A stretch of 64,000 nucleotides of DNA from Candidatus Omnitrophota bacterium (GTDB lineage Bacteria > Omnitrophota > Gorgyraeia > Gygaellales > Profunditerraquicolaceae). Below the pieces are notes generated by a model. The model saw only the letters and a list, made by a program, of their open reading frames with translations. It made no database searches and was not told where the DNA came from. Position numbers and translations under genes: made by a program. The stretch lies in contig JAQUOV010000002.1 in assembly GCA_028716965.1 (NCBI GenBank), positions 132,472 to 196,471 of the forward strand, read 5' to 3'. Shown here piece after piece: positions 2,098-51,554 of this stretch (positions are counted from its first letter, which is position 1; the number at the start of each line of letters is the position of its first letter).

Positions 2098-2239
2098 TCC
2101 AAAGATTATTAGATGTATATTTTTATTCTAATTTACCATAAATATAATAAGTTATATACTTTTTAACAGAAACATAACCCCTTTAATACTACGACGATAT
2201 TAAGTTCTTAAATATATATAAATAGAAGGAGATTATAGA

Positions 2240-3331: not shown

Positions 3332-3335
3332 AACA

Positions 3336-6061
<2,726 letters not shown>

Positions 6062-6063
6062 CT

Positions 6064-9316: not shown

Positions 9317-9321
9317 ACTCT

Positions 9322-9396
9322 GACCCTGTCGTCTAGCCTGGTCCAGGACAAGAGCTTTTCAAGCTCTCGACACGGGTTCAAATCCCGTCAGGGTCA
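9322..9396 (+). tRNA. tRNA-Glu (anticodon UUC)
   Basis: Hand-folded cloverleaf. The acceptor GACCCUG pairs with CAGGGUC, the D-arm CGUCUAGCCUGGUCCAGGACA resembles bacterial tRNA-Glu, and the anticodon loop is UUUUCAA. A GGGUUCAAAUCCCGU T-arm is present and the discriminator is A. Confidence 0.85.
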
Positions 9397-9463
9397 CTAA
9401 AATCGCATAAGGGCTATTGCTGATCGTATATTGTTTGCGATAGGCAATAAGCGGTAAGCTAAT

Positions 9464-24100: not shown

Positions 24101-26769
24101 ATTTGAAGTCTGCAAGAAGCCCCTTAACCGAAGGCTTTGTGCTTAAAAATGAAAGCCGGGGTAGAATTCAAGGGTTAGCGGAGAAATGGAAGGCAGGCTT
24201 ATTAAGCGGTCTTGATTTATTGTCAAGACCGGAAATCCCCAAAGAAGAATTCAGGATTTTGGCCCGCTTTGTTAATAAATTGGTAGAAAGCGACATAAAT
24301 GCAATAAGCGTTCCATCTGATCCGGATACACAGGTAATTCTTGACACCTTTACTATAGGTTACCCCCGCGCAGAAATAGATTTTAAGAGTACGCTTGCAG
24401 TAAAGGTTTCAGAAACAGCCCCCGATAGCGGATCTAAGTCTATTGGCCTCTTAAAACTCAAGCTGGAAAAGCTTATTGAAATAATAGATGTTTTAGAGGG
24501 GGTTATAAATTCCGAGGGGGTTATTGATACAGAATTAATAACTGCTAGTCATTATAGAGAGCCAATGAAGGTTATAACACAGAAGTTTATTGATGGGGTA
24601 ATGGAAAAGATCCCGAAACCACCTGAATTATCCTCGGGTCAGATTAAACCTGCCAGCTCGCCAGCCGAGGCGAAGAGCCCTGTAGCTTCAGAGCTTGAAA
24701 TACGCCCGGAAGAAGCCGCCAGGTTATTGAGAGAGGCAGCTCAGGAGAACTATGAAAAATGGTGTCTTTTGGGCGAGCGATTAAAAGTAGCAAGGCGTAT
24801 TTTAGTCAAGGTTCCCGGACGCGATTCTCGCGGAGGACATGAATTTCCTTTGGGGGAGATAGCCGCTACCCTGCCGATATTGATCAAGGCGTTGGTTAAT
24901 TCCGGAAAAGATATTGAAGAGCTAATAGTGCAATGTGATTCTTACCCGGAATTGGTAGAAGCGATAGGAGAAGATAAGGTCAAATTAGCTGATCCTATAC
25001 AGACAACTGATGAATTAAGGTCTATCTATTCCCCGGATTTGGTTATTGATTTTGACACGGTAGCATTAGGCGAGGAGATTCCAGAAAGCACAGTAAAATT
25101 TCCAGTGGCAAGGCTATGGATGTCTTCAGATCGCCTCGGTGAAATGCGTGAAATTTTAAGATCAGCGCAATTAATCACTCCTGAATCAGGAGAGACAATT
25201 ATTAAGAGAGAAAAGAAAGAAGATGGACAGAAAACAATATTTGTAAATCCACATAGCGATAGCAATAAGAATGATAATGTAGATTCTTGGGTAGGCTTAA
25301 TACAGGAGCTTGTCTCAAAGGGCTATAAAGTTGTACTTAATTCAGGCAAAGAGGGGGGAATAGACCAGGCACATACAAAAAATATATTAGAAAAACTTAA
25401 AAAAGAAGTTGAATCTGGGGACGTGGAAGAGTTTAAAGGCAGTATCAGAGATCTTCTAGATACCTTTTTAAGTAAAATAGACGGTGTAATAACAATAGAT
25501 AGCGGTATATTCCACGTAGTACATAATTTATATTCCTTGCCCACAGTCGTTTTTATCACGTCAAATACGCTAGGATGGATTCCGCAGGAAAAAGAGGAGT
25601 TATTATTTAAGAGGATTCAATACTCAGATTTTAAAGATTATTCCACTATAGTAGCATTATTACGGAATTTACTAGAGAGAGAAAAAAAAGTAAACACAGG
25701 CTCTCCGGTGGTGGAGAATAATATAGAAAAGATAAAGAAATATACTTTAAAATCACTCAAGGATTTTGGCTATCCAGAAAATATCTTTGGTGGCATTACT
25801 AGACTAGAAAATGATAAGGCTCGCGCTCAGGTTATCAACGGCAAAGTATTCTTTAATGAGTTTTGGGTAGATAGATTGTTTGAGGATGAAATAGAACGCC
25901 TTTGCGCACACGAAGTTCAGCATCTATCGACAGAAGATCTTATAGGTAAAGGCATCAAATTAGGCGGCCTGCAAAAGGATAAAGGGTATATAGAGTTGAT
26001 GTTACGCATAGGCAGTCGATTTGACCGGATATTTGAAGAAAAAGGATCTGTGTTAACAAAACCTAAAGAATTCTATCAGGATCCATGGGAGGCATTGTCG
26101 CTTTTGCGGGGATACCAAATTTATTTGGACCAGGTAGCAAGAGGCATAAAAGTTTCTCCGCAAGCATATGAATTCATAGAGGCATTTGAAAATGATGATA
26201 CTATTTTCTTGAATCCTAATTATGTGCAACAGATTACGAAAAATTTTATACCAGAAGATTACGGGTATGAAAGGGTTACTTATGAACAGCTGGATGGAAA
26301 AGACGAGAATGGGGGAATGAGCAGTCCTTTGTTAAAACAAGGGCAAGTAAGCAAAGAGTCAGACGTTGGAGGCATTGACATGCGTTATCTGCCTAACAAT
26401 ATGGTTCTCCAGCCGATGGCGCCTAATAACTCCTTGAATCAGAGATTTATTCCTAGGGCCGCATCTTTAACTATTTCTGATAAGGAATGGCTTGAGATAG
26501 AAAAGATGGCAAATTCAGGCATAGCTCCTTCTTGTGAGCGATTAAGAGAGTATCTTTTATCTTTGCAGGACCCAAACAGCCAGATAGATAAAGTCCTTGC
26601 CTGTATTGCAGATATCCTGAGGCAGGAGGAAGAAAAAGCCTGCTGCACGGAATCTTCCTTAAAGGAAATACTGGTCCTGCTTGAATCAGGCAAGCCGGAT
26701 AAAGAATTAAGATTGGCATTAACAAAGATCCAGGTTTTAGCTAAAGAACCGCAGTTGATAGAGCAATAA
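12148..26769 (+). CDS. Giant secreted multidomain protein (4873 aa) with caspase-like, two GHKL ATPase-like and GT9-like modules
   Basis: One uninterrupted 14,622-nt ORF. The N-terminus has a signal-peptide-like stretch (MAYRLRKILSFFLCFLLIFQQSGFTQIAG). Internal motifs are a His...Cys dyad (IGGHGS...LDSCSTG), GHKL N-boxes ELIANAQDA and ELAQNARDA each with a G1-like box, a GT9 motif ITIDSGIFHVVHNLYSLPTVVF, and two HEXXH motifs. Confidence 0.85.
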   Translation: MAYRLRKILSFFLCFLLIFQQSGFTQIAGELDISGRFLALRNSFIQDRFRPIHLRYLSYDPSINNFSLLLDKGDFLKGLSPKDKAPKPIGWFGAPPSAGVVPEEILQQETKTLLNYFFIGISLPNEAFWVNLRPDSPNNIIDPEVAETDVGRILLEADLQLKKDTASFTSPQTPEGKDYWDKLYKKAEELYGSENITIPTLTRPWIVPDEIIIRESSDNAYIYKATLKVMLEQDYLKDSLVYNFTDGRSKALNEYSSELIRNTIIPRLTREINSSKRYAPLRQVYYSLILAQWFKQKFYGKSGLYSYLIDKHNLQGLASKSPWSKTDYFNAYKVSFEQGEYNIKEPRYTPFGQVIRSYMSGGIQLGGPEAIKQIIHAKPAGNSSPLFFRNNYIVQGLAKVSSAIDAPYHIEAIDINNIIQGATNSKQQPSSSPLQSDAPAVSLVAQKKPAATSPAQQPEKISNIYGLISAFKKALFQRKERARFYEIRKQLIKMGFSPAVYEQALEYALGLKDAEMALQAISGLEQKFSTGEGKQSAETLKIIVVLAEPQIAQYAINSLAVALTIESTDQSAVFALREIAKCPFIEPQIAQYAINSLASALVTTTDFGFSEGIAYELFHLAQGGRKAVRDKALSSLEMALSTPGLNPKIYERIAKLFESLIRYAKKDTAQEVISFLESIRDIKASELDPVAFKVMGYALANTGWQRRGLVRRTSIFPLEKDGLLKKLAIIIHPVEDNNGAFKDIENKGKQLESRGYRVIIARVDGIDALLAALKAATAQQRASVIMIGGHGSRTSIQLGFGEPNSKLTIRDKQLKEKLSAAVGTLEENGIIILDSCSTGKGGRIFSNIAQLFADIFPQGFVFASPYPVVAEKGIKLVFNNKNEVTAVEFLHAYWPHGYYNSAAKRDLNSPKNLAIAEKVRDPEDSQNGSASSPQETKIANNQTSSPINSSETLLDPKDVLRPDGWRKLKLMVSFVRELINSGIEFDDGYYRGLFDNDIFLNEAERVFGERRLIPARIDTYIYNQATSVEQALIELIANAQDAVVNEKKIGRFGVGAYQMFRELKSPEDTIIVTTSTDGRLGWRITFKLIEGDLCCKTEQLSEGIEKGTTVAVNTKLSSEDVQERINYIKNKLHTNARSKITVNGILINNPEQYHYINGDNLVMPDIEPVQVEITGKGYVVIDKGSGMSPKTIWEKFLVPKGTTKAIEGKPAEKSSEIREETHLFYSNIISGEGQGRVAVQISGVKNIEVPIFGMNIPEELIIELPHDAWLPESRDKIAMDSVTREGLLEVMRKLTSPQRSDIANRYALINGVASLLRHILKDSEDKSLLYELRRMCSDYIQAEGFGKIFLPNRKELALLLLSPEQEVIFLDEQMFYFRPSNIPSVEKVRDFVSAAYELYIGNLDDPEESNIYIEGSYPDGRGWIILDRKVWEKHKADPAWLNGFLNFSIGYGDEGKNFGTIIKSSAGKVSSGEAGLSTDQLSSGPSIGKKGFKISQEEIDALRNDLISSKMIKEQLDDFEERDVNFIIKIAEESIAAGEINKGNIDEKRIKLHSWLALLKDLKRSLPEGMFSEAWLQKELYQVKFNIFSSQEIISSPEVANGKLYFYITRFGDETVHWTTFEINKQGTVISFEGARPVFTSQHIYLIEKDSNLHKISIRNSGENKIILEKVVGEYLEGSKNENLLALVQEGEIISIKIISGENVAEFCRLPAQEMAGMLSEKPSAVVCNNKYVVWFSHFGPQMIFKVNSSGDMQQIKIKGVDRIKTIAIFPNGNIAIAGHKKTSFQDDFLNKYSASSSLKADYFSGINRKAEIIFVDDHGKTDEYYVQDEGIWQKDDAVYFLKDKGLVRLNQNGESKMFALPNIDQILGSKKIDSLVFSGKYIYLVIAGRDVPLPGTNPLYRIEVDKEEAKEITDGSLSHTLITAGEQSYCISLKKGGSRKIRRIEENGEMVIIYNEWDVKAAIPDGNSLFVVREESRQGMYNKLSLYEISQDGKAKFTYSLEGVDLEFWKMENGEFMFLEDYDELASQEDEVSLHANPSEPFRTLRRVNIYNQRTGEAVKRSAIFFEGSYRNMVFLDGHPFAVESYQITAYPNLSLLIEQREYLRKNLTVLQERYLPQLFGLLSVLRQNERERLLQSLVTHKQWMPALIFLSPETILKAGEGIEQLRQILDDVVYKAKNIKQIRETFKFINFIFSTIKDEKIALRITGRWCKVFLKNPDLAEVIADKMQEKFDVPQDGFIEMFARRFGMGMNAGGVSTGKNPLEFYQDSKDLAYLPSEVRLYLDFLVSEELMVPVFLSEDRFSGRKTKAEIKGVDLSTLIRLRELSPDTILQHHDVQWEDVVLGVLGLNGSDIQGIRRDIAGAVNSQDKTQQYWIRELAQNARDAIRAMSGIEVKSGFLGHGFYTAFAGGCNEVRIRTGNGTYAYEIVLKPSYDPKGDMVDIAVVRMTRYESNFKGTQIQRVNYYNSTADEDVILGVLYTTRQVKRFLGAIPSTGEDGVSVIYNNELINEDGHRSENAARVIKIGNGVTQTPNKDGYYEWVVSITDPAGMDLHTILNKLLPPDVSGKPAQVSPAKGAIGANLESSFSKDKILRVTVDRLYVDDVDSKYTELVPQDIRQVLLKRGWNINFPQGTPVTRTRIGVMDSQYYRPWIAALALRSAVVLYLNEGIPELEGLIPKDYIYSNSNAIRVSPDILEDAEAINNGMPEKVDFSKYNNPHLLVQLFTVIKVAWKEERISLWEIKQRVLEEYKKTADKVSLEGILPPGLQGLRDRAESYITQSINKRRVDISFLMQEPIIIAFQEFVNILNRLIKVNNKTNFVCDIGAPYSAYASAFVPAEGAITWNLAYYESILQELLNFISTGALDGNFLKFIETYIHESSHTVEGSYQEKYKNEWTHQAARNVGGAFGWIMDLLYGRLLSNMGTPEEFREMSKKELEEMDFTIEALRESYEKVSNYIDQQTPPIGLSTLEKVEFKQPAASPIILKESSNISNQPIDTGRRRFIQLLGSFGLASLIVPVQTQAQMLFQCIIQVVTNVLTDREIKHINAWVKELIRLADQGNVAEFQQQFNRMYEGKPVRKDEEKDPTITMNISAHSVGFSMEAYTRPKVIIPNKLFLSKNFYNWKSEIKQEIVKQILKNAYGLGAPESFEVLEILDAISSNERLFNMLDMEEQKLLYTYIGKASVSQALLSTEKDVYPAIGRWINSIHDLYEQDGKWSEYVKKYLDSRFCSDEQLYILLSRGGFELYTGTFNRVFDELLKRIQASGNIIAWLSKVDSAGNMTSEFLLSLSGRGRLIRVIDASAVNLAQKEKMLKQICDIIRNIASANAKELMEEKTKMAYISNAVKDIFNYGNSNVNDYLKEIILQIKDNGGIYGKAFSLMIMAKFQNVFGSTPETEEIRAVLDYAASPPYEQILKPGKRLVVLVDFANSAKDFLGELVKQLSSNYGGRYKIRSHKPDVQHGIVTVIGGSINGVDIEFHLARGISGDEFRETMESGKYSIIFTRHHSYEGGDFLGVGSNTVIPQVIGTVGTGKGIENNAFSIVLSEEIAKTFSSRTGWDEVWHNMRKRLPKSMDNYLPPNHISFLISYVLNAIDTRSTKIDLNGDIHNKQLIKTIVVDGGCGGINRIPSYLNKYGYAIEKFKNHPAGSPLSIRQQVVPLGSAVVSGSSSPADKIERGGKGVDYRALAINRIRDAFQKVLNRNPEDREVMDVFGFIESDPDGTYLEERTYFAVAEAYANEIKRAGASSPIGISRTQEELAYYQQLKENGPLVFDKDNDRWFLDEAWSGYDYHSVRSLLTPIDLKNPDTLEEELGRINAIFTRFDLSKVNSFGALYAYIRWRLSPNRYGANSRVSVETLVNIIEQARDGKEINIAFTDPLLTQILDKAKDLVETDKSSSSPIKLSSRLAMIETQIYNLERLLLDEEKLNNGEWLELYLAAEGQIGDEALYYGNLKIVQDAKGNESKLHQLKRAFEPYVKGLLTKAKDLKSARSPLTEGFVLKNESRGRIQGLAEKWKAGLLSGLDLLSRPEIPKEEFRILARFVNKLVESDINAISVPSDPDTQVILDTFTIGYPRAEIDFKSTLAVKVSETAPDSGSKSIGLLKLKLEKLIEIIDVLEGVINSEGVIDTELITASHYREPMKVITQKFIDGVMEKIPKPPELSSGQIKPASSPAEAKSPVASELEIRPEEAARLLREAAQENYEKWCLLGERLKVARRILVKVPGRDSRGGHEFPLGEIAATLPILIKALVNSGKDIEELIVQCDSYPELVEAIGEDKVKLADPIQTTDELRSIYSPDLVIDFDTVALGEEIPESTVKFPVARLWMSSDRLGEMREILRSAQLITPESGETIIKREKKEDGQKTIFVNPHSDSNKNDNVDSWVGLIQELVSKGYKVVLNSGKEGGIDQAHTKNILEKLKKEVESGDVEEFKGSIRDLLDTFLSKIDGVITIDSGIFHVVHNLYSLPTVVFITSNTLGWIPQEKEELLFKRIQYSDFKDYSTIVALLRNLLEREKKVNTGSPVVENNIEKIKKYTLKSLKDFGYPENIFGGITRLENDKARAQVINGKVFFNEFWVDRLFEDEIERLCAHEVQHLSTEDLIGKGIKLGGLQKDKGYIELMLRIGSRFDRIFEEKGSVLTKPKEFYQDPWEALSLLRGYQIYLDQVARGIKVSPQAYEFIEAFENDDTIFLNPNYVQQITKNFIPEDYGYERVTYEQLDGKDENGGMSSPLLKQGQVSKESDVGGIDMRYLPNNMVLQPMAPNNSLNQRFIPRAASLTISDKEWLEIEKMANSGIAPSCERLREYLLSLQDPNSQIDKVLACIADILRQEEEKACCTESSLKEILVLLESGKPDKELRLALTKIQVLAKEPQLIEQ
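13789..13941 (+). repeat. 39-bp perfect direct repeat (two copies, 13789..13827 and 13903..13941) inside the giant gene
   Basis: gaaccgcaaatcgcccaatacgccattaactccttagcg occurs twice 114 bp apart, encoding EPQIAQYAINSLA in two consecutive helical repeat units. Confidence 0.9.
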
Positions 26770-26862: not shown

Positions 26863-26891
26863 TTGACAACCCGCTTTAGAGGTGCTATATT
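26863..26891 (+). promoter_or_regulatory. Sigma70-like promoter of the pyr operon (-35 TTGACA, 17-nt spacer, -10 TATATT)
   Basis: TTGACA at 26863..26868 and TATATT at 26886..26891 with exactly 17-nt spacing. This places a leader of about 180 nt before pyrR. Confidence 0.5.
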
Positions 26892-26974
26892 TATATAAAT
26901 TAGATTAACCTTTAAGCTGGCTCTTGAGAAGCTGGCAAGGAAAAAATGAAGAATAAAGCCATGAAAAATACGAG

Positions 26975-27005
26975 CCCTTGGTAGAAAAACCAAGGGTATT
27001 TTTTT
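26975..27005 (+). terminator. Intrinsic terminator/attenuator in the pyrR leader (PyrR-type attenuation)
   Basis: CCCTTGG-agaaaaa-CCAAGGG perfect hairpin followed by TATTTTTTT, inside the 5' leader of pyrR. Additional hairpins follow (GCCGC-agga-aGCGGC at 27006..27020; CACCGGCTT...AAGCCGGGTG at 27021..27048). Confidence 0.65.
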
Positions 27006-27077
27006 GCCGCAGGAAGCGGCACACCGGCTTAACCTTTAAAGCCGGGTGTAGTGAGCGGGATAGAATCAAGCATATAA

Positions 27078-27617
27078 ATGAAAGAGAAAGCTAAAATCTT
27101 GGATAAAGAAGGGGTTCAGCGCGCATTTACGCGTATTGCCCACGAAATAATTGAGAAGAATAGCGGCATAGGCGAACTTTGCTTGGTAGGCATCAGGAAC
27201 CGCGGAGTTTATATAGCCCAAAGAATAGCTGATTGTATAGGCAAAACTGAAGGCAGGAAGATACCCGTAGGCGCGTTAGATATTACACTTTACCGTGATG
27301 ACCTGGCTTTGGCCAGTGGCCAGCCGTTGGTGCGCAAAACCGAGATCGATTTTGACATTAACAACAAAATACTTGTACTTGTTGATGATGTGCTTTATAC
27401 CGGTAGGACGATCAGGGCCGCATTGGATGCGCTAATTGATTTTGGCCGGCCGAGAACAATACAACTGGCTGTGTTAATTGATAGGGGTCACCGCGAACTG
27501 CCTATACGGGCGGATTTTGTGGGGAAAAATATACCAACATCCCAAAAAGAATCTGTAGAGGTGCGCTTGCTTGAATCAGACGGCAGGGATGAAGTAGCGA
27601 TCATGGAGAAAGATTAG
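27078..27617 (+). CDS. pyrR: Bifunctional pyrimidine operon regulatory protein / uracil phosphoribosyltransferase PyrR
   Basis: 179 aa with the PRTase motif [16 protein letters not shown] and the N-terminal PyrR pattern ([20 protein letters not shown]). Confidence 0.9.
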
Positions 27618-28550
27618 ATGTCTTGGGTAAAAAAGGATCTTTTAGGCCTGGAGTATTTGACTAAAGAAGAGATAGAGTTAATCCTGGATACCGCTGATTC
27701 ATTTAAAGAGGTCTCTACCAGAGAGATCAAGAAGGTTCCTGCCTTGCGCGGTAAGACCGCGGTAAATCTTTTTTATGAACCATCAACCAGGACAAGGGTT
27801 TCTTTTGAGGTGGCCGCAAAGAGATTATCCGCTGATGTTATTAATATCGCCACCGAGACATCCAGCGTACGCAAGGGGGAAACCTTGATTGATACGGGTA
27901 AGAATATCCAGGCGTTAAAGGCAGATATGATTATCATGAGGCATAATTGTTCCGGGGCGGCGAATATGCTTGCCCGCGCGTTGGATATCAGTGTGATAAA
28001 TGCCGGAGACGGCTGGCATGAGCATCCCACGCAGGCATTGCTTGATATGTTCACGCTTAAAGAAAAACTTGGGAGAATAGAAGGTTTGAATGTAACTATC
28101 GTAGGTGATATCGCGCATTCACGGGTTGCCCGTTCTAACATATGGGGGTTGACTAAGCTAGGGGCTAATGTTACGGCATGTGCTCCGGAGATGTTGCTTC
28201 CGGTTGCAATAGAGAAGATGGGGGTGAAAACCTCCAGCAATATTGATGAAGCCTTAAAAGAGGCTGATGCGGTAAATGTCTTAAGGATGCAGTTTGAACG
28301 CGATGAAGGCGCGGCTTTCCCGCAGCAACTGGATTATTTTAAGAGGTTCGGTATTACAAGAGAAAGATTAGCTAAAGCCAAGAAGGATATAGTTGTTATG
28401 CACCCCGGGCCGATTAACCGGGGAATTGAAATGTCCAGTGATGTGGCAGACGGAGCAAATTCTGTAATTTTAGATCAGGTGACCAACGGCATTGCCGTTA
28501 GGATGGCTGTTTTGTTCCTGGTAGCCCAGGCAAGGGAAGTGAAGGCATGA
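27618..28550 (+). CDS. pyrB: Aspartate carbamoyltransferase catalytic subunit
   Basis: 310 aa with the STRTR carbamoyl-phosphate binding motif (EPSTRTRVSFE) and the HPxQ-like HEHPTQALLD. Confidence 0.9.
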   Translation: MSWVKKDLLGLEYLTKEEIELILDTADSFKEVSTREIKKVPALRGKTAVNLFYEPSTRTRVSFEVAAKRLSADVINIATETSSVRKGETLIDTGKNIQALKADMIIMRHNCSGAANMLARALDISVINAGDGWHEHPTQALLDMFTLKEKLGRIEGLNVTIVGDIAHSRVARSNIWGLTKLGANVTACAPEMLLPVAIEKMGVKTSSNIDEALKEADAVNVLRMQFERDEGAAFPQQLDYFKRFGITRERLAKAKKDIVVMHPGPINRGIEMSSDVADGANSVILDQVTNGIAVRMAVLFLVAQAREVKA

Positions 28551-29821
28551 GTATATTGATTAAAAGCGGAAGAGTAATTGACCCGGCTAACAAAATTGAT
28601 GCTGTCTTGGATATTTTAATCGAAGAAGATAAGATATCCAAAGTTGCAAAAAATATTAAAGCGCAGGCAGACAGCATAATTGATGCAGCAGATAAAATTG
28701 TCGCTCCGGGCCTTATTGATATGCACGTGCACCTGCGCCAGCCGGGTAGAGAGGATAAAGAGACAGTGGCTACTGCCACTGCTGCAGCTACCAGGGGAGG
28801 AGTAACTACTGTTTTAGCCATGCCGAATACCAACCCGGCTATGGATTGTTTAGAGAACGCGGAGTTACTTAAAAAAATAATCGCTAAGGATGCCAGGATT
28901 AACGTGCTTATTTGCGGTACGATTACCAAGGGCCGGCTAGGTAAGGAATTAAGCGCGATCCTTGAGCTCAAGAAGAGCGGGGTTTGTGCCATATCCGATG
29001 ATGGTTGTTCGGTGGATAGCGATGAATTGATGTTTGCGGCGCTTAAAGAAGCAAAACAGGCAGGGGTTTTAACTATCTGTCATTCCGAAGACAAAAAAAT
29101 TTCAGGGAATGGGGTAATCAACCTGGGTTTTAATTCTACGCGCTTAGGGCTGCGGGGGATTTCCAATGAATCGGAATATAAGAGAGTGGCGCGCGATATT
29201 GAATTGGCAAAAAAATCCGGCGCATCCGTACACATTGCCCATGTTAGCTGCAGGCAGTCAGTAGAAATAATTGGCAAAGCCAGGAAAAACGGCGTAAAAT
29301 TGACTTGTGAAACCTCGCCACATTATTTTTCCTTAACAGAAGATGCTCTTTTGGGGTATGATACAAATATGAAGATGAATCCTCCTTTAAGAAGCTTGGA
29401 GGACCTTGTGGCAATTAAGCAAGGGTTAAAGGACGGAACGATTGATACAATCGCTTCAGACCATGCCCCGCATACGGAGAATGAAAAAGATATTGAGTTT
29501 GAACGCGCGGAGTTCGGGGTAGTAGGCCTTGAGACCGAATTGGCCGTGAGTATTACCGAGCTGATAAATTCAAAGATATTAGACTGGAGCAAACTTTTTG
29601 AGAAGTTTACTTCTAATCCTGCCAGGATCCTGGGTATAGAGAGGGGTTCTTTGAGCCAGGGAGGGCCGGCAGATGTAGCGATTGTTTCCGGAGGAAAAGA
29701 GTGGCAGGTTAAAAAAGATGAGTTGCTCTCTAAATCTAAAAACTCCGCCTTCCTTGGACGCACCTTAAAGGGGACAGTAGACTATACAATTTGCAACGGA
29801 AAGATAGTATATAAAAGGTAA
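28547..29821 (+). CDS. pyrC: Dihydroorotase
   Basis: 424 aa amidohydrolase with the metal-binding DMHVHLRQPG motif and the downstream Asp/His. It overlaps the pyrB stop by 4 nt. Confidence 0.9.
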   Translation: MSILIKSGRVIDPANKIDAVLDILIEEDKISKVAKNIKAQADSIIDAADKIVAPGLIDMHVHLRQPGREDKETVATATAAATRGGVTTVLAMPNTNPAMDCLENAELLKKIIAKDARINVLICGTITKGRLGKELSAILELKKSGVCAISDDGCSVDSDELMFAALKEAKQAGVLTICHSEDKKISGNGVINLGFNSTRLGLRGISNESEYKRVARDIELAKKSGASVHIAHVSCRQSVEIIGKARKNGVKLTCETSPHYFSLTEDALLGYDTNMKMNPPLRSLEDLVAIKQGLKDGTIDTIASDHAPHTENEKDIEFERAEFGVVGLETELAVSITELINSKILDWSKLFEKFTSNPARILGIERGSLSQGGPADVAIVSGGKEWQVKKDELLSKSKNSAFLGRTLKGTVDYTICNGKIVYKR

Positions 29822-29824
29822 AGA

Positions 29825-31063
29825 ATGGAATTTATCGCTGATTTTCATATTCATTCAAAATACTCCCGGGCAACCAGCCGTGATATGGATGTCAAGCACC
29901 TGGCAGAGTGGGCAAAGCTGAAAGGCATTACCCTTATGGGCACAGGGGATTTTACGCACCACCTCTGGCTGGAAGAATTAAAACATACATTAGAAGACTG
30001 CGCTAACGGTTTGTATAAATATGCGGGAGTGTATTTTATGCTCACGGCCGAAGTAAGCAGTATTTATTCCAAGAATGGGCGTACTTACCGCATCCATAAC
30101 TTAATCTTCAGCCCATCATTTAAAACCGTAGATAAAATAAACGAAAGATTAGGCAGGATCGGTAACCTGGCCAGTGACGGCCGGCCGATATTGGGCCTGG
30201 ATGCCGCGGAATTAGCGCGTATTGTCTTTGACATAGACGAAAACTGTATGATTGTACCCGGGCATATCTGGACGCCGTGGTTTTCCGTGTTTGGCTCTAT
30301 GTCTGGTTTTGACAGGATAGAAGACTGTTTTGAGTCGCAGACAGAAAAGATATTTGCGCTTGAGACCGGGCTTTCAAGCGATCCGACGATGAATTGGCGC
30401 CTGAGCGCTTTAGACAGGTTTACCTTGATCTCCAATAGCGATTCGCATTCTCCTTCCAGGATCGGCCGCGAAGCGAATGTCTTTAACTGCGAAATGGATT
30501 ACAAAACCATAAGGGAGGTTTTAAAAACCAAGGATAAAAAAAGATTTCTCTACACCATAGAATTTTTCCCGGAAGAAGGCAAATATCATTTTGACGGACA
30601 TAGGCTCTGTGGTATCCGCTGGTCTCCTGAAGAAACCAGGGCGCATAACGGAAAATGCCCTAAATGCGGTAAAAACGTAACCGTGGGGGTAGTTAACCGG
30701 GTGGAAAAATTGGCCGATCGCAAAGAAGGGTTTGTTCCGGATAACGCCATACCTTTTAAAAACCTTGTTTCGTTGGATCAAATAATCGCGGAGGCAAAAG
30801 GCGTGGCTAAAACCAGCATAGGAGTGGAAAGGGATTATCGTAGTTATTTGGCAAGCTTCGGCACGGAATTTGATATACTGATGCGTGCTTCCAGGGAGGA
30901 TTTGCTCAAAAAGCTTCCTCCTAAGGTTGTAGAAGGTGTTCTAAGGGCGCGGGCAGGAAAGGTAAATATAAAGCCCGGTTATGATGGGGAATATGGAGTA
31001 ATCTCAATATTTGATAAGGATTCCCCTGAAGATAAGCATGAACAGCAGCTTAAGTTATTTTAA
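29825..31063 (+). CDS. PHP-domain metal-dependent phosphoesterase with C4 zinc ribbon, endonuclease Q-like
   Basis: 412 aa. The N-terminal PHP motif is DFHIHSKYSRATS...GTGDFTHHLW, with internal SNSDSHSP...GREANVF. A GKYHFDGHRLC region is followed by a CPKCGK zinc ribbon and C-terminal GYDGEYGVISIF. This architecture matches the EndoQ family. Confidence 0.6.
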   Translation: MEFIADFHIHSKYSRATSRDMDVKHLAEWAKLKGITLMGTGDFTHHLWLEELKHTLEDCANGLYKYAGVYFMLTAEVSSIYSKNGRTYRIHNLIFSPSFKTVDKINERLGRIGNLASDGRPILGLDAAELARIVFDIDENCMIVPGHIWTPWFSVFGSMSGFDRIEDCFESQTEKIFALETGLSSDPTMNWRLSALDRFTLISNSDSHSPSRIGREANVFNCEMDYKTIREVLKTKDKKRFLYTIEFFPEEGKYHFDGHRLCGIRWSPEETRAHNGKCPKCGKNVTVGVVNRVEKLADRKEGFVPDNAIPFKNLVSLDQIIAEAKGVAKTSIGVERDYRSYLASFGTEFDILMRASREDLLKKLPPKVVEGVLRARAGKVNIKPGYDGEYGVISIFDKDSPEDKHEQQLKLF

Positions 31064-31095: not shown

Positions 31096-31167
31096 GCGCC
31101 TGTGGCCCAACGGATAAGGCACCAGCCTCCGGAGCTGGTGATGCAGGTTCAATTCCTGCCAGGCGCA
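31096..31167 (+). tRNA. tRNA-Arg (anticodon CCG)
   Basis: Acceptor GCGCCUG/CAGGCGC; anticodon stem CCAGC/GCUGG with loop CUCCGGA; T-arm GCAGGUUCAAUUCCUGC; discriminator A. Confidence 0.85.
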
Positions 31168-31180
31168 TAAATATGAGTGT

Positions 31181-31660
31181 ATGAAGAAAAATATAATATC
31201 AGTAATAGGTGGACATAATTCTACAGAGGAAGTGGAGCAGATTGCCATTAATTTAGGCAGAAAATTGGCAAAAGTGGTTGATGTTCTTGTGTCTGGAGGC
31301 CTAAGTGGTACAATGAAGGCAGTTTGCGCAGGTTTTAAAGCCAGCGGAGGCCTAACTATAGGAATTATCCCGAGTTACAATAAGAGAGATGCCAATGAAT
31401 TTGTAGATATTGTTATTCCTACGGGCCTTGGTTTAGCTAGAAATGTACTGGTAGTTAAAACTGCAGATGTAGTTGTGGCGCTTCCAGGTGAAGCAGGCAC
31501 TCTTTCTGAAATTGCTTATTGCCTGCAGTTCGGTATTCCCGTAATTAGTTTAGGGTCTTGGAATATTAAAGGAGTTATCAAAGTATCATCGGTTGATAAG
31601 GCAATTGATAAGATTAAAGAACTGCTGGGGAATACAGCTAAAAGAAAGGGCGTTTCTTAA
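31181..31660 (+). CDS. LOG/TIGR00725-family Rossmann-fold protein (lysine-decarboxylase-like)
   Basis: 159 aa with VIGGHNSTEE...VSGGLSGTMKAV...VALPGEAGTLSEI, the GGxGxMEA-like and PGGxGTxxE motifs of the LOG/SLOG family. Confidence 0.6.
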   Translation: MKKNIISVIGGHNSTEEVEQIAINLGRKLAKVVDVLVSGGLSGTMKAVCAGFKASGGLTIGIIPSYNKRDANEFVDIVIPTGLGLARNVLVVKTADVVVALPGEAGTLSEIAYCLQFGIPVISLGSWNIKGVIKVSSVDKAIDKIKELLGNTAKRKGVS

Positions 31661-31662
31661 GA

Positions 31663-33261
31663 ATGAGAAAAAGAGTGGTTATCTTAGGAGGAGGGCCGAA
31701 TAGAATAGGCCAGGGTATTGAGTTTGATTATTGCTGTTGTCATGCCGCCTACGCGCTTAAAGAGGAAGGGGTAGACAGCATTATGGTCAACTGTAACCCG
31801 GAGACAGTCTCTACCGATTATGATACCTCCGACAGGCTCTATTTTGAACCTCTCACTTTTGAAGATATCATGAATATTATTGAATTGGAGAAACCGATTG
31901 GGGTGATCGTGCAGTTTGGCGGCCAGACCCCGATTAACCTGGCAGTAGCCTTAAGAGGTGCAGGGGTGAACATCCTGGGGACCAGCTCTGAAAGTATTGA
32001 TATCGCAGAAGACCGCAAACGGTTCAAACAGATGATTGATAAGTTGGGACTTTTGCAGCCGAATAGCGGCACGGTATTTACATTTGACGAGGCAAAGAAA
32101 GTAGCCGCTAATATCGGATACCCCGTTTTAGTCAGGCCGTCATATGTGTTGGGCGGACGGGCTATGGAGATCGTCTATGACGCAGAAGTATTGGAGAGGT
32201 TTATTAAGGAGGCAGCCGAGGTATCCGGTGAGCACCCCATATTGATAGATAAATTCCTCGAGGATGCTATTGAAGTGGATGTTGATTTAATCGGAGACGG
32301 CCAAACTTTCGTCATCGGCGGGATCATGGAACATATTGAACAAGCGGGAGTGCACTCAGGAGATGCGGCAATGTCGCTTCCCAGTTACACTTTATCGCCG
32401 GATATTTTAAGAGATATAAGAGAAGCTACCTATGCTTTGGCCAAGGAGCTCAATATTGCCGGCTTAATGAATGTGCAGTATGCGGTTAAAGATGCCAGAG
32501 TTTATATATTGGAGGTTAACCCCCGCGCCTCACGCACCGTGCCCCTGGTTTCTAAAGTTATCGGGGTGCCTTTGGCAAAACTGGCAACCAAGGTTATGCT
32601 GGGCAGGAAGCTTAAAGATCTGGGTTTCACCGAAGAGGTAATCCCCCGGCATGTGGCAGTTAAAGAATCGGTTTTTCCTTTTAACCGTTTCCCGGGTGTA
32701 GATGTAATGCTTGGTCCGGAGATGAAATCTACCGGAGAGGTGATGGGTATTGACAAGGATTTTTCCAGCGCTTATATAAAGAGCCAGATTGCCGCCGGGC
32801 AGAAGATCCCTAAGAAAGGGAACGTATTTATCTCCGTGCATGACCGGGACAAAAGGGATGTAATTTCTATTGCCAAGAAGTTAAAGGACCTGGGATTTAA
32901 GATCTTTGCTTCAAGCGGCACGGCATCTGTTTTGAAAAAGAATAATATTCCGGCTAAAGTGCTGCCGAAAATCACCGAGGGCAGGCCGAATATACTGGAC
33001 TTAATGAAAGACGGTAAGATTCAAATGGTGATTAATACACCTTCGGGCAGGATCCCCAGGCAGGATGAGGTAAAAATCCGTTCACAGGTGATTCTTTATA
33101 ACATACCTTATACTACTACCATCTTTGGAGCACAGGCAACGGTAAACGGGATCGAGATGTTCATGAAAAAAGACTTAGGCGTAAAATCATTGCAGGAGTA
33201 CCATAAGATTAAGGGCAGGAAAGTCAAACAGGATAAAACGTGCCGGAACTTCCCGAAGTAG
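31663..33261 (+). CDS. carB: Carbamoyl-phosphate synthase large chain, C-terminal half as a stand-alone ORF
   Basis: 532 aa beginning RVVILGGGPNRIGQGIEFDYCCCHAAYALKEEGVDSIMVNCNPETVSTDYDTSDRLYFEPLT, the start of the second ATP-grasp repeat. It ends with the MGS-like domain (KGNVFISVHDRDKRD...). No N-terminal half or carA is present in the window. Confidence 0.85.
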   Translation: MRKRVVILGGGPNRIGQGIEFDYCCCHAAYALKEEGVDSIMVNCNPETVSTDYDTSDRLYFEPLTFEDIMNIIELEKPIGVIVQFGGQTPINLAVALRGAGVNILGTSSESIDIAEDRKRFKQMIDKLGLLQPNSGTVFTFDEAKKVAANIGYPVLVRPSYVLGGRAMEIVYDAEVLERFIKEAAEVSGEHPILIDKFLEDAIEVDVDLIGDGQTFVIGGIMEHIEQAGVHSGDAAMSLPSYTLSPDILRDIREATYALAKELNIAGLMNVQYAVKDARVYILEVNPRASRTVPLVSKVIGVPLAKLATKVMLGRKLKDLGFTEEVIPRHVAVKESVFPFNRFPGVDVMLGPEMKSTGEVMGIDKDFSSAYIKSQIAAGQKIPKKGNVFISVHDRDKRDVISIAKKLKDLGFKIFASSGTASVLKKNNIPAKVLPKITEGRPNILDLMKDGKIQMVINTPSGRIPRQDEVKIRSQVILYNIPYTTTIFGAQATVNGIEMFMKKDLGVKSLQEYHKIKGRKVKQDKTCRNFPK

Positions 33262-34058
33262 AGACAATAAAAAGAGATTTACAAAAGGTAATCTTGGGCA
33301 GGAAAATCACCAAGGTTTGTATATATAACCCGGCGGTAATACGCCAGCCTCTGCCTTCGGCATTTAAAAAACACCTTAAAGGGTTGGTTGTAAAGACAAT
33401 CCTGCGCCGAGGGAAGCTTTTAATTTTAGAGTTATCTAACGGATCAGCCTTGACTGTGCATTTAAGGATGACAGGACAGTTAGTGCTCGGCCAAAAGCCG
33501 GGCAATCCAGGAGGTTCCAAGGCCAGCCGGGTAACTTTTCATCTGTCCGGAGGCAGGATTTTAGATTTTAATGATCAGCGTTTGTTCGGAGAGTTGCGTT
33601 TGGTTGATGACTGGAGGAAGATAAAATTCATCCAGGGGCTTGGTCCTGAACCATTTGATCTAACTTATAGTGATTTCAAGGATATGTTTTCTAAGAAGAA
33701 AACCAAGATCAAGCCTTTACTGATGGATCAGTCGTTTATCGCCGGCATCGGCAATCTTTATGCCGCGGAGATTTTGTTCTGCGCCAGAGTTGATCCGCGC
33801 AGGCAAGCGCGAAGTTTGACAGAGGGAGAAAAACAAGCTATATATAGGGAAACCAAAAAGGTGTTAAAGAGTGCGATTGCGCATGGAGGTTCTTCGATTG
33901 ATGATTACGTGCGCCTTTCCGGCAAGCCGGGAGATTATCGTAAGTTCCACCGTGTTTACGGCAGGCAGGGCAAGCCCTGTTTTGTCTGTAAGGGCTTGAT
34001 TAAAAAGATTAACCAGGGAGGAAGAGGCACTTATTTTTGCCCAAAGTGCCAGAAGTAG
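33240..34058 (+). CDS. mutM: Formamidopyrimidine-DNA glycosylase
   Basis: 272 aa beginning MPELPEVETIKRDL (catalytic Pro2/Glu3), with H2TH and a C-terminal zinc finger CFVCKGLIKKINQGGRGTYFCPKCQK. It overlaps the carB end by 22 nt. Confidence 0.9.
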   Translation: MPELPEVETIKRDLQKVILGRKITKVCIYNPAVIRQPLPSAFKKHLKGLVVKTILRRGKLLILELSNGSALTVHLRMTGQLVLGQKPGNPGGSKASRVTFHLSGGRILDFNDQRLFGELRLVDDWRKIKFIQGLGPEPFDLTYSDFKDMFSKKKTKIKPLLMDQSFIAGIGNLYAAEILFCARVDPRRQARSLTEGEKQAIYRETKKVLKSAIAHGGSSIDDYVRLSGKPGDYRKFHRVYGRQGKPCFVCKGLIKKINQGGRGTYFCPKCQK

Positions 34059-34105: not shown

Positions 34106-34813
34106 ATGAAAAAACGCCTTAAAATTAACGGAATTATCATGGGTTGCGCGGCAATTGTCGTCGTGTTTTTCCCAAAGTTTTTCTTTCGTAATAATATTAA
34201 CGGCGGCATGGAAGAATATATAGAGACCTTAGGGTTTGCTCTTATCCTGCTGGGGCAAATAATCCGCGTTTCTGCCCGCGGGTATAAAGCGGAACACTCC
34301 CGTGAAAGCCAGGCATTAATACAAGGCGGGCCATACCAGGTAGTGCGTAATCCGATGTACCTGGGGATATTTCTGATCGGCTTAGGCGTAGTGTTGGCGG
34401 TGTTCAAGTGGTGGGCGGCGGTAATCTTTATCATAGTTTTTATTATCCGTTATATCCTGCTTATATATAAGGAGGAAAAGAAACTCTTGGCCGTGTTTCC
34501 CGAATCATACAAAAAATATTGCCAGAAGATGCCGCGTATTCTGCCATCGTTATCTAGAATGACAAGTTTAGATATCAGCGAGTATTTACCTATAAAGCTA
34601 ATTTGGTTTAAAAAAGAAATCGGTTCAATTTTGACGCTTCTTTTACTGGTTTTATTGGTGGAATCCTGGGAGGGTATTTCCAGGCAGGGGCTTATGGCAT
34701 ATCTTAACCAGGCCGTATGGCTATTGTTGACCTTTATTTTATTTATCATTTTTGTAATTTTACTCAGCATCCGGACATATAAAAAAGATGGAAACAGCGT
34801 TGTTAAAGGTTAG
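34106..34813 (+). CDS. Isoprenylcysteine carboxyl methyltransferase (ICMT/PEMT) family membrane protein
   Basis: 235 aa, polytopic, with LIQGGPYQVVRNPMYLGIFL...EEKKLLAVFPESYKKYCQKMPR, the ICMT/phospholipid methyltransferase signature. Confidence 0.6.
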   Translation: MKKRLKINGIIMGCAAIVVVFFPKFFFRNNINGGMEEYIETLGFALILLGQIIRVSARGYKAEHSRESQALIQGGPYQVVRNPMYLGIFLIGLGVVLAVFKWWAAVIFIIVFIIRYILLIYKEEKKLLAVFPESYKKYCQKMPRILPSLSRMTSLDISEYLPIKLIWFKKEIGSILTLLLLVLLVESWEGISRQGLMAYLNQAVWLLLTFILFIIFVILLSIRTYKKDGNSVVKG

Positions 34814-35573
34814 GGTAATCTCAAATAAAAAACTTAAATGCAATTATTGGCATTTAGAGTTTGAGTGCGGTATGATTGCCAGGAATGCCAGGCCCGGGCA
34901 GTTTGTAGAGGTTAAGGTTAATCATCTTATGGATCCATTATTAAGGAGGCCTCTTAGTATCCATGGCGTAAGCGGAACAAGGGTTAGGATTATTTATGAA
35001 GTTATCGGCAAGGGCACACAGATTTTATCCGAGCAAGGCCCAGGTGTTTTTCTGGATGTTATCGGACCGCTGGGCAAAGGTTTTGAATATGGTCAGATAA
35101 CTAATAAAGCAGATAAGCAAAAAAATATTTTGGTCGCAGGAGGCATGGGGGTAGCCCCGTTGGTTTTCCTTGCGCAGAGAATGAAAGGCAGCAGGCCGCT
35201 GGTTCTCATTGGAGCCAAGACAAAAGAACATATTCTTTGTGAAAAAGAATTTAAGAGTTTGGGGTGCAAAATAAAGATCGCCACTGACGACGGCAGCCGC
35301 GGATTCAAAGGAAGGGTTACAGATCTTTTAAAGGATTTGCTGTCAACTGTCAACTGTCAACTGTCAACTATATATGCCTGCGGCCCGCAGCCAATGCTAA
35401 AAGCTGTTGCCCGGATTTCTTGTGAAAATAACCTTGCCAGCCAACTTTCGCTGGAAAGGCATATGGCGTGCGGATTCGGCGCTTGTTTAGGATGTGTTGT
35501 GTCTACTAAATCCGGATATAAAAGAGTTTGTAAGGATGGCCCGGTTTTTGCGGGCGAGGAGCTGACTTGGTAA
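34788..35573 (+). CDS. pyrK: Dihydroorotate dehydrogenase electron transfer subunit
   Basis: 261 aa with an FAD/NAD-binding ferredoxin-reductase fold and a C-terminal 2Fe-2S motif CGFGACLGCVV. It sits upstream of pyrD. Confidence 0.85.
   Translation: METALLKVRVISNKKLKCNYWHLEFECGMIARNARPGQFVEVKVNHLMDPLLRRPLSIHGVSGTRVRIIYEVIGKGTQILSEQGPGVFLDVIGPLGKGFEYGQITNKADKQKNILVAGGMGVAPLVFLAQRMKGSRPLVLIGAKTKEHILCEKEFKSLGCKIKIATDDGSRGFKGRVTDLLKDLLSTVNCQLSTIYACGPQPMLKAVARISCENNLASQLSLERHMACGFGACLGCVVSTKSGYKRVCKDGPVFAGEELTW
35340..35367 (+). repeat. Heptanucleotide tandem repeat (CTGTCAA)x4 inside pyrK
   Basis: Four exact tandem copies of ctgtcaa, read directly from the sequence. They encode LSTVNCQLST. Confidence 0.9.
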
Positions 35574-36502
35574 AGAAGCCCGGACCAGATTTAAGTGTAA
35601 AGATAGGAAGTCTGCATTTAAAGAACCCTGTAATGGTTGCTTCCGGGACTTTCGGTTACGCCGAGGAGTTCAACGGCCTCCTGGATTTAAAAAAGCTGGG
35701 TGCTATTGTTACTAAAACCATCACCATTAAGCCCCGGCAGGGCAATCTCCCTCCGCGGACCTGTGAAACTCCTTCTGGAATGCTTAATTCCATCGGCCTG
35801 GAAAACCCCGGCATAGATAAATTTATTGGAGACAAGCTTCCCTTTTTGAAAAAGCTGGGTATCCCGATCATTATTAGTATTGCCTCCGAAGATGATCCCG
35901 GGGAATTTTGCATTCTGGCGGAGAGGCTGGATAAAATAAGCGCGATCTCCGCAATCGAACTGAATATCTCCTGCCCTAATCTGCAGAAGAATAAGTTGAT
36001 CTCTCAAGATGCCAGGGAAACTTTTGCTTTAATCAGCGCACTGCGCAAACTTACCCGAAAATGCTTAATCACTAAACTTTCTCCCAATGTAACTTCCATC
36101 TCGGATATTGCTTTGGCCGCGCAGGAGGCAGGAAGCGATGCCGTGGCTTTAATCAACACACTTGCCGGTATGAGCATAGATGTACATAAGCGCACGCCAA
36201 AACTCGGATCCTGGTCTGGAGGCTTAAGCGGGCCGGCAATCAGGCCGGTAGCGGTGAAGATGGTTTGGGATGTTTATAACAAGATTAAGATTCCCATTAT
36301 CGGCATGGGTGGTATAATGGATACAGAAAGCGCCCTGGAGTTTTTTCTCGCCGGCGCTACTGCTATCAGTGTGGGAACCGCAAACTTCATTAACCCGGGA
36401 ATAAGCCTTGATATTATCTCCGGGTTAGAAAAATATATGGCAGATGGCGGCATCCAGAGTTTGAGTAATATTATCGGAAAGTTAAAAGAATGCAAAGATT
36501 AA
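35567..36502 (+). CDS. pyrD: Dihydroorotate dehydrogenase catalytic subunit (class 1B)
   Basis: 311 aa with NPVMVASGTFGY...NSIGLENPG...NISCPN...GGI....ALEF. Confidence 0.9.
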   Translation: MVKKPGPDLSVKIGSLHLKNPVMVASGTFGYAEEFNGLLDLKKLGAIVTKTITIKPRQGNLPPRTCETPSGMLNSIGLENPGIDKFIGDKLPFLKKLGIPIIISIASEDDPGEFCILAERLDKISAISAIELNISCPNLQKNKLISQDARETFALISALRKLTRKCLITKLSPNVTSISDIALAAQEAGSDAVALINTLAGMSIDVHKRTPKLGSWSGGLSGPAIRPVAVKMVWDVYNKIKIPIIGMGGIMDTESALEFFLAGATAISVGTANFINPGISLDIISGLEKYMADGGIQSLSNIIGKLKECKD

Positions 36503-50915: not shown

Positions 50916-51554
50916 ATGAAGCGCAGGTTAAACCGTATCTTTTTACGGCTTTACTCTTTTTTCGGTCCGCAATATTGGTGGCCCGCGGATAGTGGTTTTG
51001 AAGTAATCATAGGGGCGATTCTTACGCAGAATACTAATTGGGGCAATGTAGAAAAGGCAATCTCATACATTAAAAAAGAAGGATACCTTGATCCGGAAAG
51101 GCTTTTGAAGCTTCCCCTTCATAAGCTGGCACGTTTAATTAAAAGCGCGGGCTATTATAATATTAAAGCAGCCAGGATCAAAAATTTCCTCAAGTTCTTT
51201 TTTGACTCATATTCGGCTGATCTAAAACGCATGTCCGGAAAAGATCCAGCAGCCCTGCGCAAGCAATTACTTGCGGTTAAGGGGATCGGCCCGGAGACAG
51301 CAGATTCCATTTTGCTTTATGCCTTAAATAAACCTGTATTCGTGATCGATGCCTATACTAAAAGAATATTCTCCCGGCACCATCTTTTAGAAGAAGACGC
51401 TACTTATGAGCAGGCCCAGGATGTTTTTATGCGTAACCTCAAGAGCGAAGTAAGATTGTTTAATGAATATCACGCTCTTTTAGTAAAATTGGGCAAGGAT
51501 TATTGCCGTAAACATAACCCCAAATGCGAGATCTGTCCGCTCCATGGTCAATAA
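50916..51554 (+). CDS. HhH-GPD superfamily DNA glycosylase (endonuclease III-like)
   Basis: 212 aa with HhH LLAVKGIGPETADSILLYAL and catalytic Asp in VFVIDAYTKRIFSRH. The C-terminal CRKHNPKCEICPL carries only 3 Cys of a possible Fe-S loop. Confidence 0.7.
   Translation: MKRRLNRIFLRLYSFFGPQYWWPADSGFEVIIGAILTQNTNWGNVEKAISYIKKEGYLDPERLLKLPLHKLARLIKSAGYYNIKAARIKNFLKFFFDSYSADLKRMSGKDPAALRKQLLAVKGIGPETADSILLYALNKPVFVIDAYTKRIFSRHHLLEEDATYEQAQDVFMRNLKSEVRLFNEYHALLVKLGKDYCRKHNPKCEICPLHGQ

Follow-up and report, generated by a model that had tools for sequence, protein, structure and literature searches.

In the literature of 2015-2018 endonuclease Q (EndoQ) was held to be archaeal, with homologues in bacteria in 'a limited number' only. 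The residue roles used here were taken from the structure and mutagenesis of the enzyme of Pyrococcus furiosus (PfuEndoQ, PF1551; PDB 5ZB8 and 7K30-7K33) (PMC5961232, PMC8307549). In PfuEndoQ the metal ligands are H8, H10, E76, H84, H139 and D193, Ser14 and Arg114 stand where other PHP enzymes have third-metal ligands, Arg114 and His195 are essential, mutagenesis data are given for D193 and H195, and a conserved β15-β16 loop props up the Zn-binding domain (PMC5961232); the pocket that takes the deaminated base is formed by H139, T142, E167, L168, G169, L170, S171, N191 and D193 (PMC5961232, PMC8307549). Archaeal EndoQ is bound and stimulated by PCNA via a C-terminal PIP box (Shiraishi et al., 2016, PMC4858679), and the Bacillus enzyme has the same activity as the archaeal one, as the work of Shiraishi et al. 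(2017) is cited in PMC5961232 and PMC6202378. Here we describe a stand-alone bacterial EndoQ family protein of 412 residues, encoded with an ATG start at positions 29825..31063 of the + strand of a 64,000-nucleotide stretch of Candidatus Omnitrophota DNA (contig JAQUOV010000002.1, positions 132,472 to 196,471; called the window below, with all positions counted from its first letter). A first-pass annotation made from the sequence alone had read this gene as an archaeal-type EndoQ embedded in a pyrimidine (pyr) operon next to other base-repair genes. We consider it very probable that the gene is a bona fide bacterial endoQ that has been inherited inside the pyr operon of Omnitrophota and is most likely co-transcribed from a PyrR-attenuated leader.

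Family membership, fold and functional residues

The open reading frame (ORF) and the three motifs on which the first-pass annotation had leaned were all found in the sequence as described, namely the PHP motif I D6-FHIHSKY-S14 (29840..29866, +), the stretch G252-K-Y-H255 followed by C278-P-K-C281-G-K, and G385-YDGEY-G391 (30977..30997, +). The suggested comparison with the Pyrococcus enzyme was made by a phmmer search of all PDB chains, which returned a full-length match to PfuEndoQ (5ZB8, 7K30-33; E = 1e-53; residues 5-396 of the query against 5-383), with the next match after it at only E = 0.25, and a match of this strength over the whole protein makes chance no issue. The NCBIfam model TIGR00375 (MJ0043/EndoQ hypothetical equivalog) was likewise matched end to end, over positions 2-374 of 374 (E 1.8e-54). 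Our local copy of Pfam-A lacked an EndoQ model and was not usable for classification; it gave only a weak zinc-ribbon match and a weak PHP_C match (E 0.1). All homologues carry a precomputed assignment to Pfam family PF27218 (MJ0043_C). An AlphaFold2 model built from the homologue alignment had a mean predicted local distance difference test (pLDDT) score of 89.2 and a predicted template-modelling (TM) score (pTM) of 0.89, and only its last 14 residues were disordered (residues 399-412, pLDDT < 50). When this model was compared with the PDB using Foldseek, apo and DNA-bound PfuEndoQ aligned with TM scores of 0.84-0.89 over about 400 columns (E 1e-36 to 1e-33), the values for 5zb8 being TMq 0.86 and TMt 0.89 over 413 columns. 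The architecture of a PHP, a Zn and a helical domain is thus that of PfuEndoQ from end to end.

The residues known to matter in PfuEndoQ were then located in the window protein, and their conservation was read from an alignment of 44 bacterial homologues with 50-88% identity. The metal ligands map to H8, H10, E76, H91, H147 and D206, and these are invariant in the 44 homologues, as are S14, R120 and H208 (Pfu S14, R114 and H195). The base pocket maps to H147, T150, E180, T181, G182, L183, S184, N204 and D206, in which the single change is that of Pfu L168 to T181, at a position where PfuEndoQ uses main-chain atoms. The pocket wall G182-L183-S184 (Pfu G169-L170-S171) lies at 30368..30376 (+) and is invariant, and D206-S-H208, which carries a metal ligand and the essential His (Pfu D193 and H195), lies at 30440..30448 (+). 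The loop residue W144 of Pfu corresponds to W152, which is W or H among the homologues, and the DNA contacts R201 and K243 correspond to R212 and K253, the former being R or K; all the other mapped functional positions are invariant. The motif G385-YDGEY-G391 aligns with the β15-β16 loop GGGGKYG of Pfu. The assignment to the EndoQ family is therefore borne out by the sequence, by the predicted fold and by each of the catalytic and pocket residues.

The predicted zinc site H259-x2-C262 ... C278-x2-C281 (30599..30667, +) aligns with Pfu C249/C252/C268/C271; all four ligand positions are occupied and the CPKCG knuckle is kept, with a His-Cys3 and not a Cys4 set of ligands. Of 86 related loci, 82 share the His of this 'DGHRxC' motif, and none of the 44 aligned homologues lacks it. 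We had considered the His-for-Cys ligand as a peculiarity of this gene and rejected that idea, as it is the rule in the bacterial clade; judged from these alignments, the His-Cys3 site is a clade character and no defect.

The disordered tail ends in Q408-L-K-L-F412 (31046..31060, +), a putative β-sliding-clamp-binding motif. Among 219 stand-alone homologues, 205 have the pattern Qxx[LIMF][FLW] within the C-terminal 14 residues and 188 have an exact LF ending; the pattern is there in 70 of 80 locus-encoded proteins as well, against a frequency in internal 14-mers of 0.0002. We do not present this motif as a new observation, since β-clamp motifs in bacterial EndoQ homologues were already remarked on in 2016 (PMC4858679).

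By homology with PfuEndoQ, the PHP domain would hold Zn2+ through H8, H10, E76, H91, H147 and D206, and a uracil, hypoxanthine or xanthine base or an abasic site would be flipped into a small pocket lined by H147, T150, E180, G182, L183, S184, N204 and D206. Hydrolysis of the phosphodiester bond directly 5′ of the lesion would then leave a nick for strand-displacement or gap-filling repair, and the QLKLF tail would probably tether the enzyme to the β sliding clamp, as the PIP box does archaeal EndoQ to PCNA. The evidence is best accounted for by a bacterial EndoQ of the ordinary kind that is probably functional. Taken alone, such a routine, automatically annotated member of the family adds little. 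The assignment is not new, either: an identical protein from a Candidatus Omnitrophica bacterium metagenome-assembled genome (P0001) is already named 'endonuclease Q family protein' at NCBI. NCBI records misname several stand-alone EndoQ proteins 'DNA helicase UvrD'.

Position in the pyr operon and the leader upstream of pyrR

The first-pass annotation had placed endoQ within the pyrimidine operon, and both the annotated neighbours and the conserved gene order agree with that placement. Upstream of endoQ, on the + strand as are all the genes named here, lie pyrR (PyrR regulator/uracil phosphoribosyltransferase; 27078..27617; NF003549, 257 bits with a cutoff of 138; Pfam Pribosyltran), pyrB (aspartate carbamoyltransferase; 27618..28550; Pfam OTCace_N and OTCace) and pyrC (dihydroorotase; 28547..29821; Pfam Amidohydro_1 and DHOase). 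The pyrC stop codon occupies 29819-29821 and thus ends 3 nucleotides (nt) before the endoQ ATG. This short gap had been read as a sign of translational adjacency; the gap is real but not distinctive, because gaps of 5 nt or less, or overlaps, make up 24 of the 42 intergenic gaps of the window (median 2.5 nt), and we rejected a special translational coupling at this junction, such gaps being the norm of this genome.

Downstream of endoQ follows a tRNA-Arg(CCG) gene at 31096..31167 (ARAGORN; Rfam tRNA, 66.5 bits), 32 nt past the endoQ stop and 13 nt ahead of a gene of the SLOG cluster-4/TIGR00725 family (31181..31660; Pfam LDcluster4, E 1.5e-38; TIGR00725, 119 bits with a cutoff of 107). The next gene is the C-terminal half only of carB, a split carbamoyl phosphate synthase large subunit (31663..33261; positions 551-1058 of 1058 of NF003671; Pfam CPSase_L_D1, CPSase_L_D2 and MGS), and its N-terminal half was not found among the scanned ORFs of the window. 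It is followed by mutM/fpg (formamidopyrimidine-DNA glycosylase; 33240..34058; TIGR00577, 282 bits with a cutoff of 203; Pfam Fapy_DNA_glyco, H2TH and zf-FPG), which has a GTG start and overlaps the end of carB by 22 nt, and then by a PEMT/ICMT-like membrane methyltransferase gene (34106..34813; Pfam PEMT and ICMT). The string is completed by pyrK (34788-35573; Pfam DHODB_Fe-S_bind), pyrD (35567-36502; Pfam DHO_dh) and pyrF (36490-37263; Pfam OMPdecase).

The window proteins were compared by tblastn with 86 endoQ loci, including 60 from other phyla. The results showed that pyrC lies directly upstream of endoQ in 23 loci, across EndoQ identities of 55-88%. Even deep branches of Omnitrophota type have the pyrC-endoQ pair, at 55-63% EndoQ and 43-65% PyrC identity, and there the order is pyrR-pyrB-pyrC-endoQ-pyrK-pyrD-pyrF (L015-L017, L019, L026, L027, L031 and L033). 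In the subclade of the window (L001-L014) a block of tRNA-Arg, SLOG, carB, mutM and PEMT genes stands between endoQ and pyrK; the tRNA-Arg(CCG) is kept at the same place in L001-L014 and in L018 and is absent in L015-L017, and mutM is kept downstream of endoQ in L001-L014 and L018. The first-pass annotation had counted mutM (33240) as part of the repair locus, which holds in so far as it is a real gene of the same string, but it is an operon neighbour in one subclade only. In L018 and L051 pyrRBC does not lie upstream of endoQ, and carB still follows it. None of the 60 loci from other phyla had a pyr gene within 10 kb of endoQ; their commonest neighbours, all of them weak associations, were PolX (7 loci) and UvrD-type helicases, HIT proteins and SLOG cluster-4 proteins (4 each). 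In a rough neighbour-joining tree the pyr-linked endoQ genes fell into two adjacent groups on an unresolved backbone, which does not decide for or against a single origin. The base composition of endoQ is that of its neighbours, with no anomaly in the composition profile and hence no sign of recent transfer.

Two side observations concern the genes next to endoQ. In six loci (L009, L013, L014, L018, L024 and L048) two tandem carB halves stand at the place of the single half of the window, and there is none in L003. In the window, as in 14 Omnitrophota loci, endoQ and tRNA-Arg are directly followed by a SLOG cluster-4/TIGR00725 gene, and seven Patescibacteria loci also have a SLOG cluster-4 gene within 10 kb of endoQ (L021, L022, L030, L050, L053, L056 and L072); endoQ and SLOG may be recurrent partners irrespective of the pyr genes.

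Upstream of pyrR the window has a promoter-like site at 26863-26891 (+; 11 of 12 matches in a promoter scan, with an extended TG), followed at 26905-27006 (+) by a PyrR-binding-site-like hairpin with an intrinsic terminator that matches Rfam RF00515 over the full model, in which the terminator has its stem at 26974-26997 (+) and, in addition, a T-run. Sub-threshold RF00515 matches were found at the same place upstream of pyrR in four further genomes (L015, 51.5 bits; L016, 50.7; L001, 43.7; L003, 40.5), and since all five of the five genomes examined have such a match where it is expected, a PyrR attenuator upstream of pyrR is likely. No terminator-like site was present on the + strand between pyrC and endoQ. 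Taken with the PyrR-site-like leaders in five of five genomes and the matching composition of endoQ, this makes co-transcription of endoQ under PyrR control a reasonable inference. A second, perfect hairpin, ACACCGGCTT-AACCTTTAA-AGCCGGGTGT, was noted at 27006-27060, past the leader terminator and ahead of the start codon of pyrR; in its loop recurs the AACCTTTAA found at 26906-26914, at the start of the PyrR-site-like element.

Readings of the gene and of its place

Several observations weigh against a bona fide EndoQ transcribed from a PyrR-attenuated leader. Overall identity to PfuEndoQ is only 33%, and the score of 185.5 bits with TIGR00375 lies under the curated cutoff of 326.6, which places the window protein outside the archaeal-type equivalog, in a divergent, non-archaeal subfamily, and for this reason we file it under the EndoQ family in the broad sense and not under the archaeal-centred equivalog; its substrate range could differ from that of archaeal-type EndoQ. 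The structural agreement may not be fully independent, as 5ZB8 was released on 2018-04-04 and presumably predates the training cut-off of the AlphaFold2 weights. Our literature search found no report of a characterised member of the His-Cys3 bacterial clade. The RF00515 match in the window has 32.5 bits where the Rfam gathering score is 54, all five leader matches lie under that score, and the tRNA-Arg after endoQ implies that any long polycistronic transcript is processed. The missed TIGR00375 cutoff and the weak local PHP_C match could also be taken to point away from EndoQ and to a different PHP subfamily, for example histidinol phosphatase, YcdX, RNase AM or 3′,5′-bisphosphate nucleotidase. 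That was the refutation which the first-pass annotation had itself proposed, and it failed: YcdX came at rank 27 in the structure comparison (TM 0.19, E 0.07), the TM values of other PHP enzymes were no better than 0.3-0.55, with a TMq of at most 0.34 for such proteins as PsfC, BAD_1165, TM0559 and Pol III alpha, and across the other subfamilies, with TMq 0.19-0.34, 12-16% identity and E-values at least 30 orders weaker than those of EndoQ, only the PHP barrel was aligned. With a three-domain architecture that matches PfuEndoQ end to end, S14 and R120 at the third-metal ligand positions in exactly the EndoQ pattern, and MJ0043_C on all homologues, this alternative is effectively refuted and we give it next to no credence. 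It is hardly any more credible that the EndoQ fold has been repurposed for a nucleotide or RNA substrate in pyrimidine metabolism. The gene does stand between pyrC and pyrK, or beside a SLOG-family gene of a kind often tied to nucleotide metabolism, and the PHP superfamily includes nucleotide phosphoesterases, but the DNA-binding and pocket residues, the Zn domain and the clamp tail are conserved, and equally so in those relatives of other phyla whose endoQ lacks a pyr linkage, while the closest relatives include UvrD fusions, and neighbours such as PolX are DNA-repair partners.

If the gene is accordingly taken as a bacterial endoQ, the question is what its place in the pyr operon means. The position may have no functional meaning, a single insertion of EndoQ in an Omnitrophota ancestor having merely been passed on to descendants whose genome is compact and unidirectional, with almost every gene abutting the next, and to this we give roughly even chances. 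It would fit the short or overlapping gaps and the large ORFs that all lie on one strand, the slot between endoQ and pyrK that has also taken up tRNA-Arg, SLOG, a PEMT-like methyltransferase and mutM, the lack of pyr neighbours in all 60 other-phyla loci with their PolX, UvrD-type helicase, HIT and SLOG genes, and the locus L018, which is without pyrRBC upstream of endoQ. It sits less well with an adjacency that survives down to 55% EndoQ and 43-53% PyrC identity while the flanking content changes, and with an endoQ that is still beside carB where pyrRBC has been lost (L018 and L051). The alternative is an adaptive coupling of the kind that the first-pass annotation had proposed, in which EndoQ, with MutM in one subclade, would be under PyrR control so that the repair of uracil and deaminated bases tracks pyrimidine supply; low UMP/UTP would derepress the operon just when more uracil would enter DNA because of a raised dUTP/dTTP ratio. 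Both the coupling and this scenario for it are doubtful in our estimate. The conserved order pyrR-pyrB-pyrC-endoQ across Omnitrophota-type loci, the PyrR-attenuator-like leaders, the recruitment of mutM as a second base-excision gene and the endoQ-carB link in the absence of pyrRBC speak for them, but this support is purely syntenic, the linkage is limited to one phylum, and the oxidised purines that are the substrate of MutM have no obvious tie to pyrimidine pools. Given a uniformly compact genome, a slot that has taken in unrelated genes and a linkage seen in one phylum only, we regard descent without functional meaning as about twice as likely as the coupling.

That EndoQ, together with MutM in one subclade, is a fixed part of a PyrR-regulated pyr operon across Omnitrophota is a further proposition, which we hold to be unlikely. 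Were it true, the pyrimidine nucleotide pool of these ultra-small bacteria would bear on how uracil and deaminated bases are removed from their DNA. No publication linking EndoQ to Omnitrophota or to pyr operons was found in a literature search, nor did the search turn up any description of alternative excision repair being linked in its regulation to de novo pyrimidine synthesis. The conserved position in the Omnitrophota pyr operon is a modestly new point, which suggests the hypothesis that uracil repair may be co-regulated with pyrimidine supply, and such co-regulation, if borne out by expression data, would add something small but new to what is known of how bacteria regulate DNA repair.

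Surroundings, distribution and described relatives

Beyond the pyr string, the window begins with dnaA, dnaN (2240-3331), gyrB, a 278-residue ORF, gyrA and glmS (760-11299), all 43 large ORFs of the 64 kb lie on the + strand and the GC skew is positive throughout, which together put the pyr/endoQ operon on the leading strand, with about 27 kb between it and the probable replication origin. A giant ORF of 4873 residues (12148-26769, +) stands between a TP_methylase gene (11301-12002) and the pyrR leader. As TP_methylase directly precedes pyrR in L001 and L003, the giant gene looks like an insertion specific to the window genome; giant genes in Omnitrophota are reportedly the subject of a 2023 bioRxiv preprint. 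The HhH-GPD gene at 50916..51554 (+), which had been counted with the endoQ locus as an EndoIII-like gene, is real, but 20 kb, with a V-type ATPase operon and two tRNA genes among them, separate it from the endoQ locus upstream, to which it is unrelated; its best model, below the cutoff, is a MagIII-like 3-methyladenine glycosylase rather than Nth. The C-terminus of this protein, CRKHNPKCEICPLHGQ, has the pattern C-x6-C-x2-C with the stop five residues on, so that the EndoIII-type 4Fe-4S motif lacks its fourth Cys. Also present are a fusion of an RNase T/DEDD exonuclease with a C-terminal WYL domain (48079-48912, +), which is found in L003 too, and two + strand ORFs of 643 residues (48981-50912) and 504 residues (44851-46365) with no Pfam match at E <= 1e-4. 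When ung, dut, polX and uvrD were looked for in the 64-kb window, none was found.

The view that EndoQ is rare in bacteria, which the first-pass annotation had repeated, is that of the 2015-2018 literature and does not stand: a scan of one genome per GTDB species found EndoQ in at least 600 species-representative genomes, and an HMMER scan of 1.84 billion representatives at 50% identity gave 1021 clusters at E <= 1e-30. The best 80 of these at least 600 loci come from Omnitrophota, Patescibacteria, Thermodesulfobacteriota, Nitrospirota, WOR-3, Aminicenantes, Chloroflexi, Cloacimonadota, Margulisiibacteriota and others. At 80 of the 86 loci compared the protein stands alone, with 403-442 residues, whereas the nearest 50%-identity cluster representatives (P0123-P0270) are mostly EndoQ-UvrD-type helicase fusions of 1000-1200 residues with about 50% identity, so that stand-alone forms dominate among the GTDB species representatives, unlike among the clusters. 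Stand-alone EndoQ proteins with the His-Cys3 site and the clamp motif, and UvrD fusions beside them, are thus widespread in uncultivated phyla, and the published archaeal picture is outdated. Two side observations were made among the homologues. Inteins with LAGLIDADG homing-endonuclease domains interrupt P0121, P0122 and P0170 around query residues 146-207, in the conserved core of the EndoQ module. Two contigs labelled Candidatus Micrarchaeota (DPANN archaea; L034 and L061) encode a bacterial-type EndoQ with 54-56% identity to the window protein, which reflects either inter-domain transfer or a binning error.

Set beside the described relatives, the window protein shares with PfuEndoQ all three domains over the full length (33% identity, TM 0.86-0.89), the metal ligands, the counterparts of R114, H195, W144, R201 and K243 and of pocket residues T142, E167, G169, L170, S171 and N191, the CPxCG knuckle and the glycine-rich β15-β16 loop. 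It differs in having H259 in place of Cys249, T181 in place of L168 in the pocket and a 7-residue insertion after E76, and its tail carries the bacterial β-clamp motif QLKLF where that of PfuEndoQ carries the PCNA PIP box QRTLLQYI; its host, moreover, is a mesophilic uncultivated bacterium in which the gene lies in a pyr operon. With the TIGR00375/MJ0043 family the match is end to end, but the bacterial clade is a subfamily separate from the archaeal seed. The EndoQ of Bacillus pumilus and B. subtilis is a bacterial homologue as well, and nicking 5′ of deoxyuridine, deoxyinosine and apurinic/apyrimidinic sites is known for the Bacillus enzyme from the citing papers named above; it differs in that the literature found describes no pyr-operon context for it. 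In the EndoQ-UvrD fusions (about 1000-1200 residues; P0123, P0125 and P0131) the N-terminal ~420 residues are 50-56% identical to the window protein and have the same His-Cys3 site, with a Qxx(L)F motif directly after the EndoQ module, but there the module continues into a C-terminal UvrD/PcrA-type superfamily 1 helicase, whereas the window protein stands alone.

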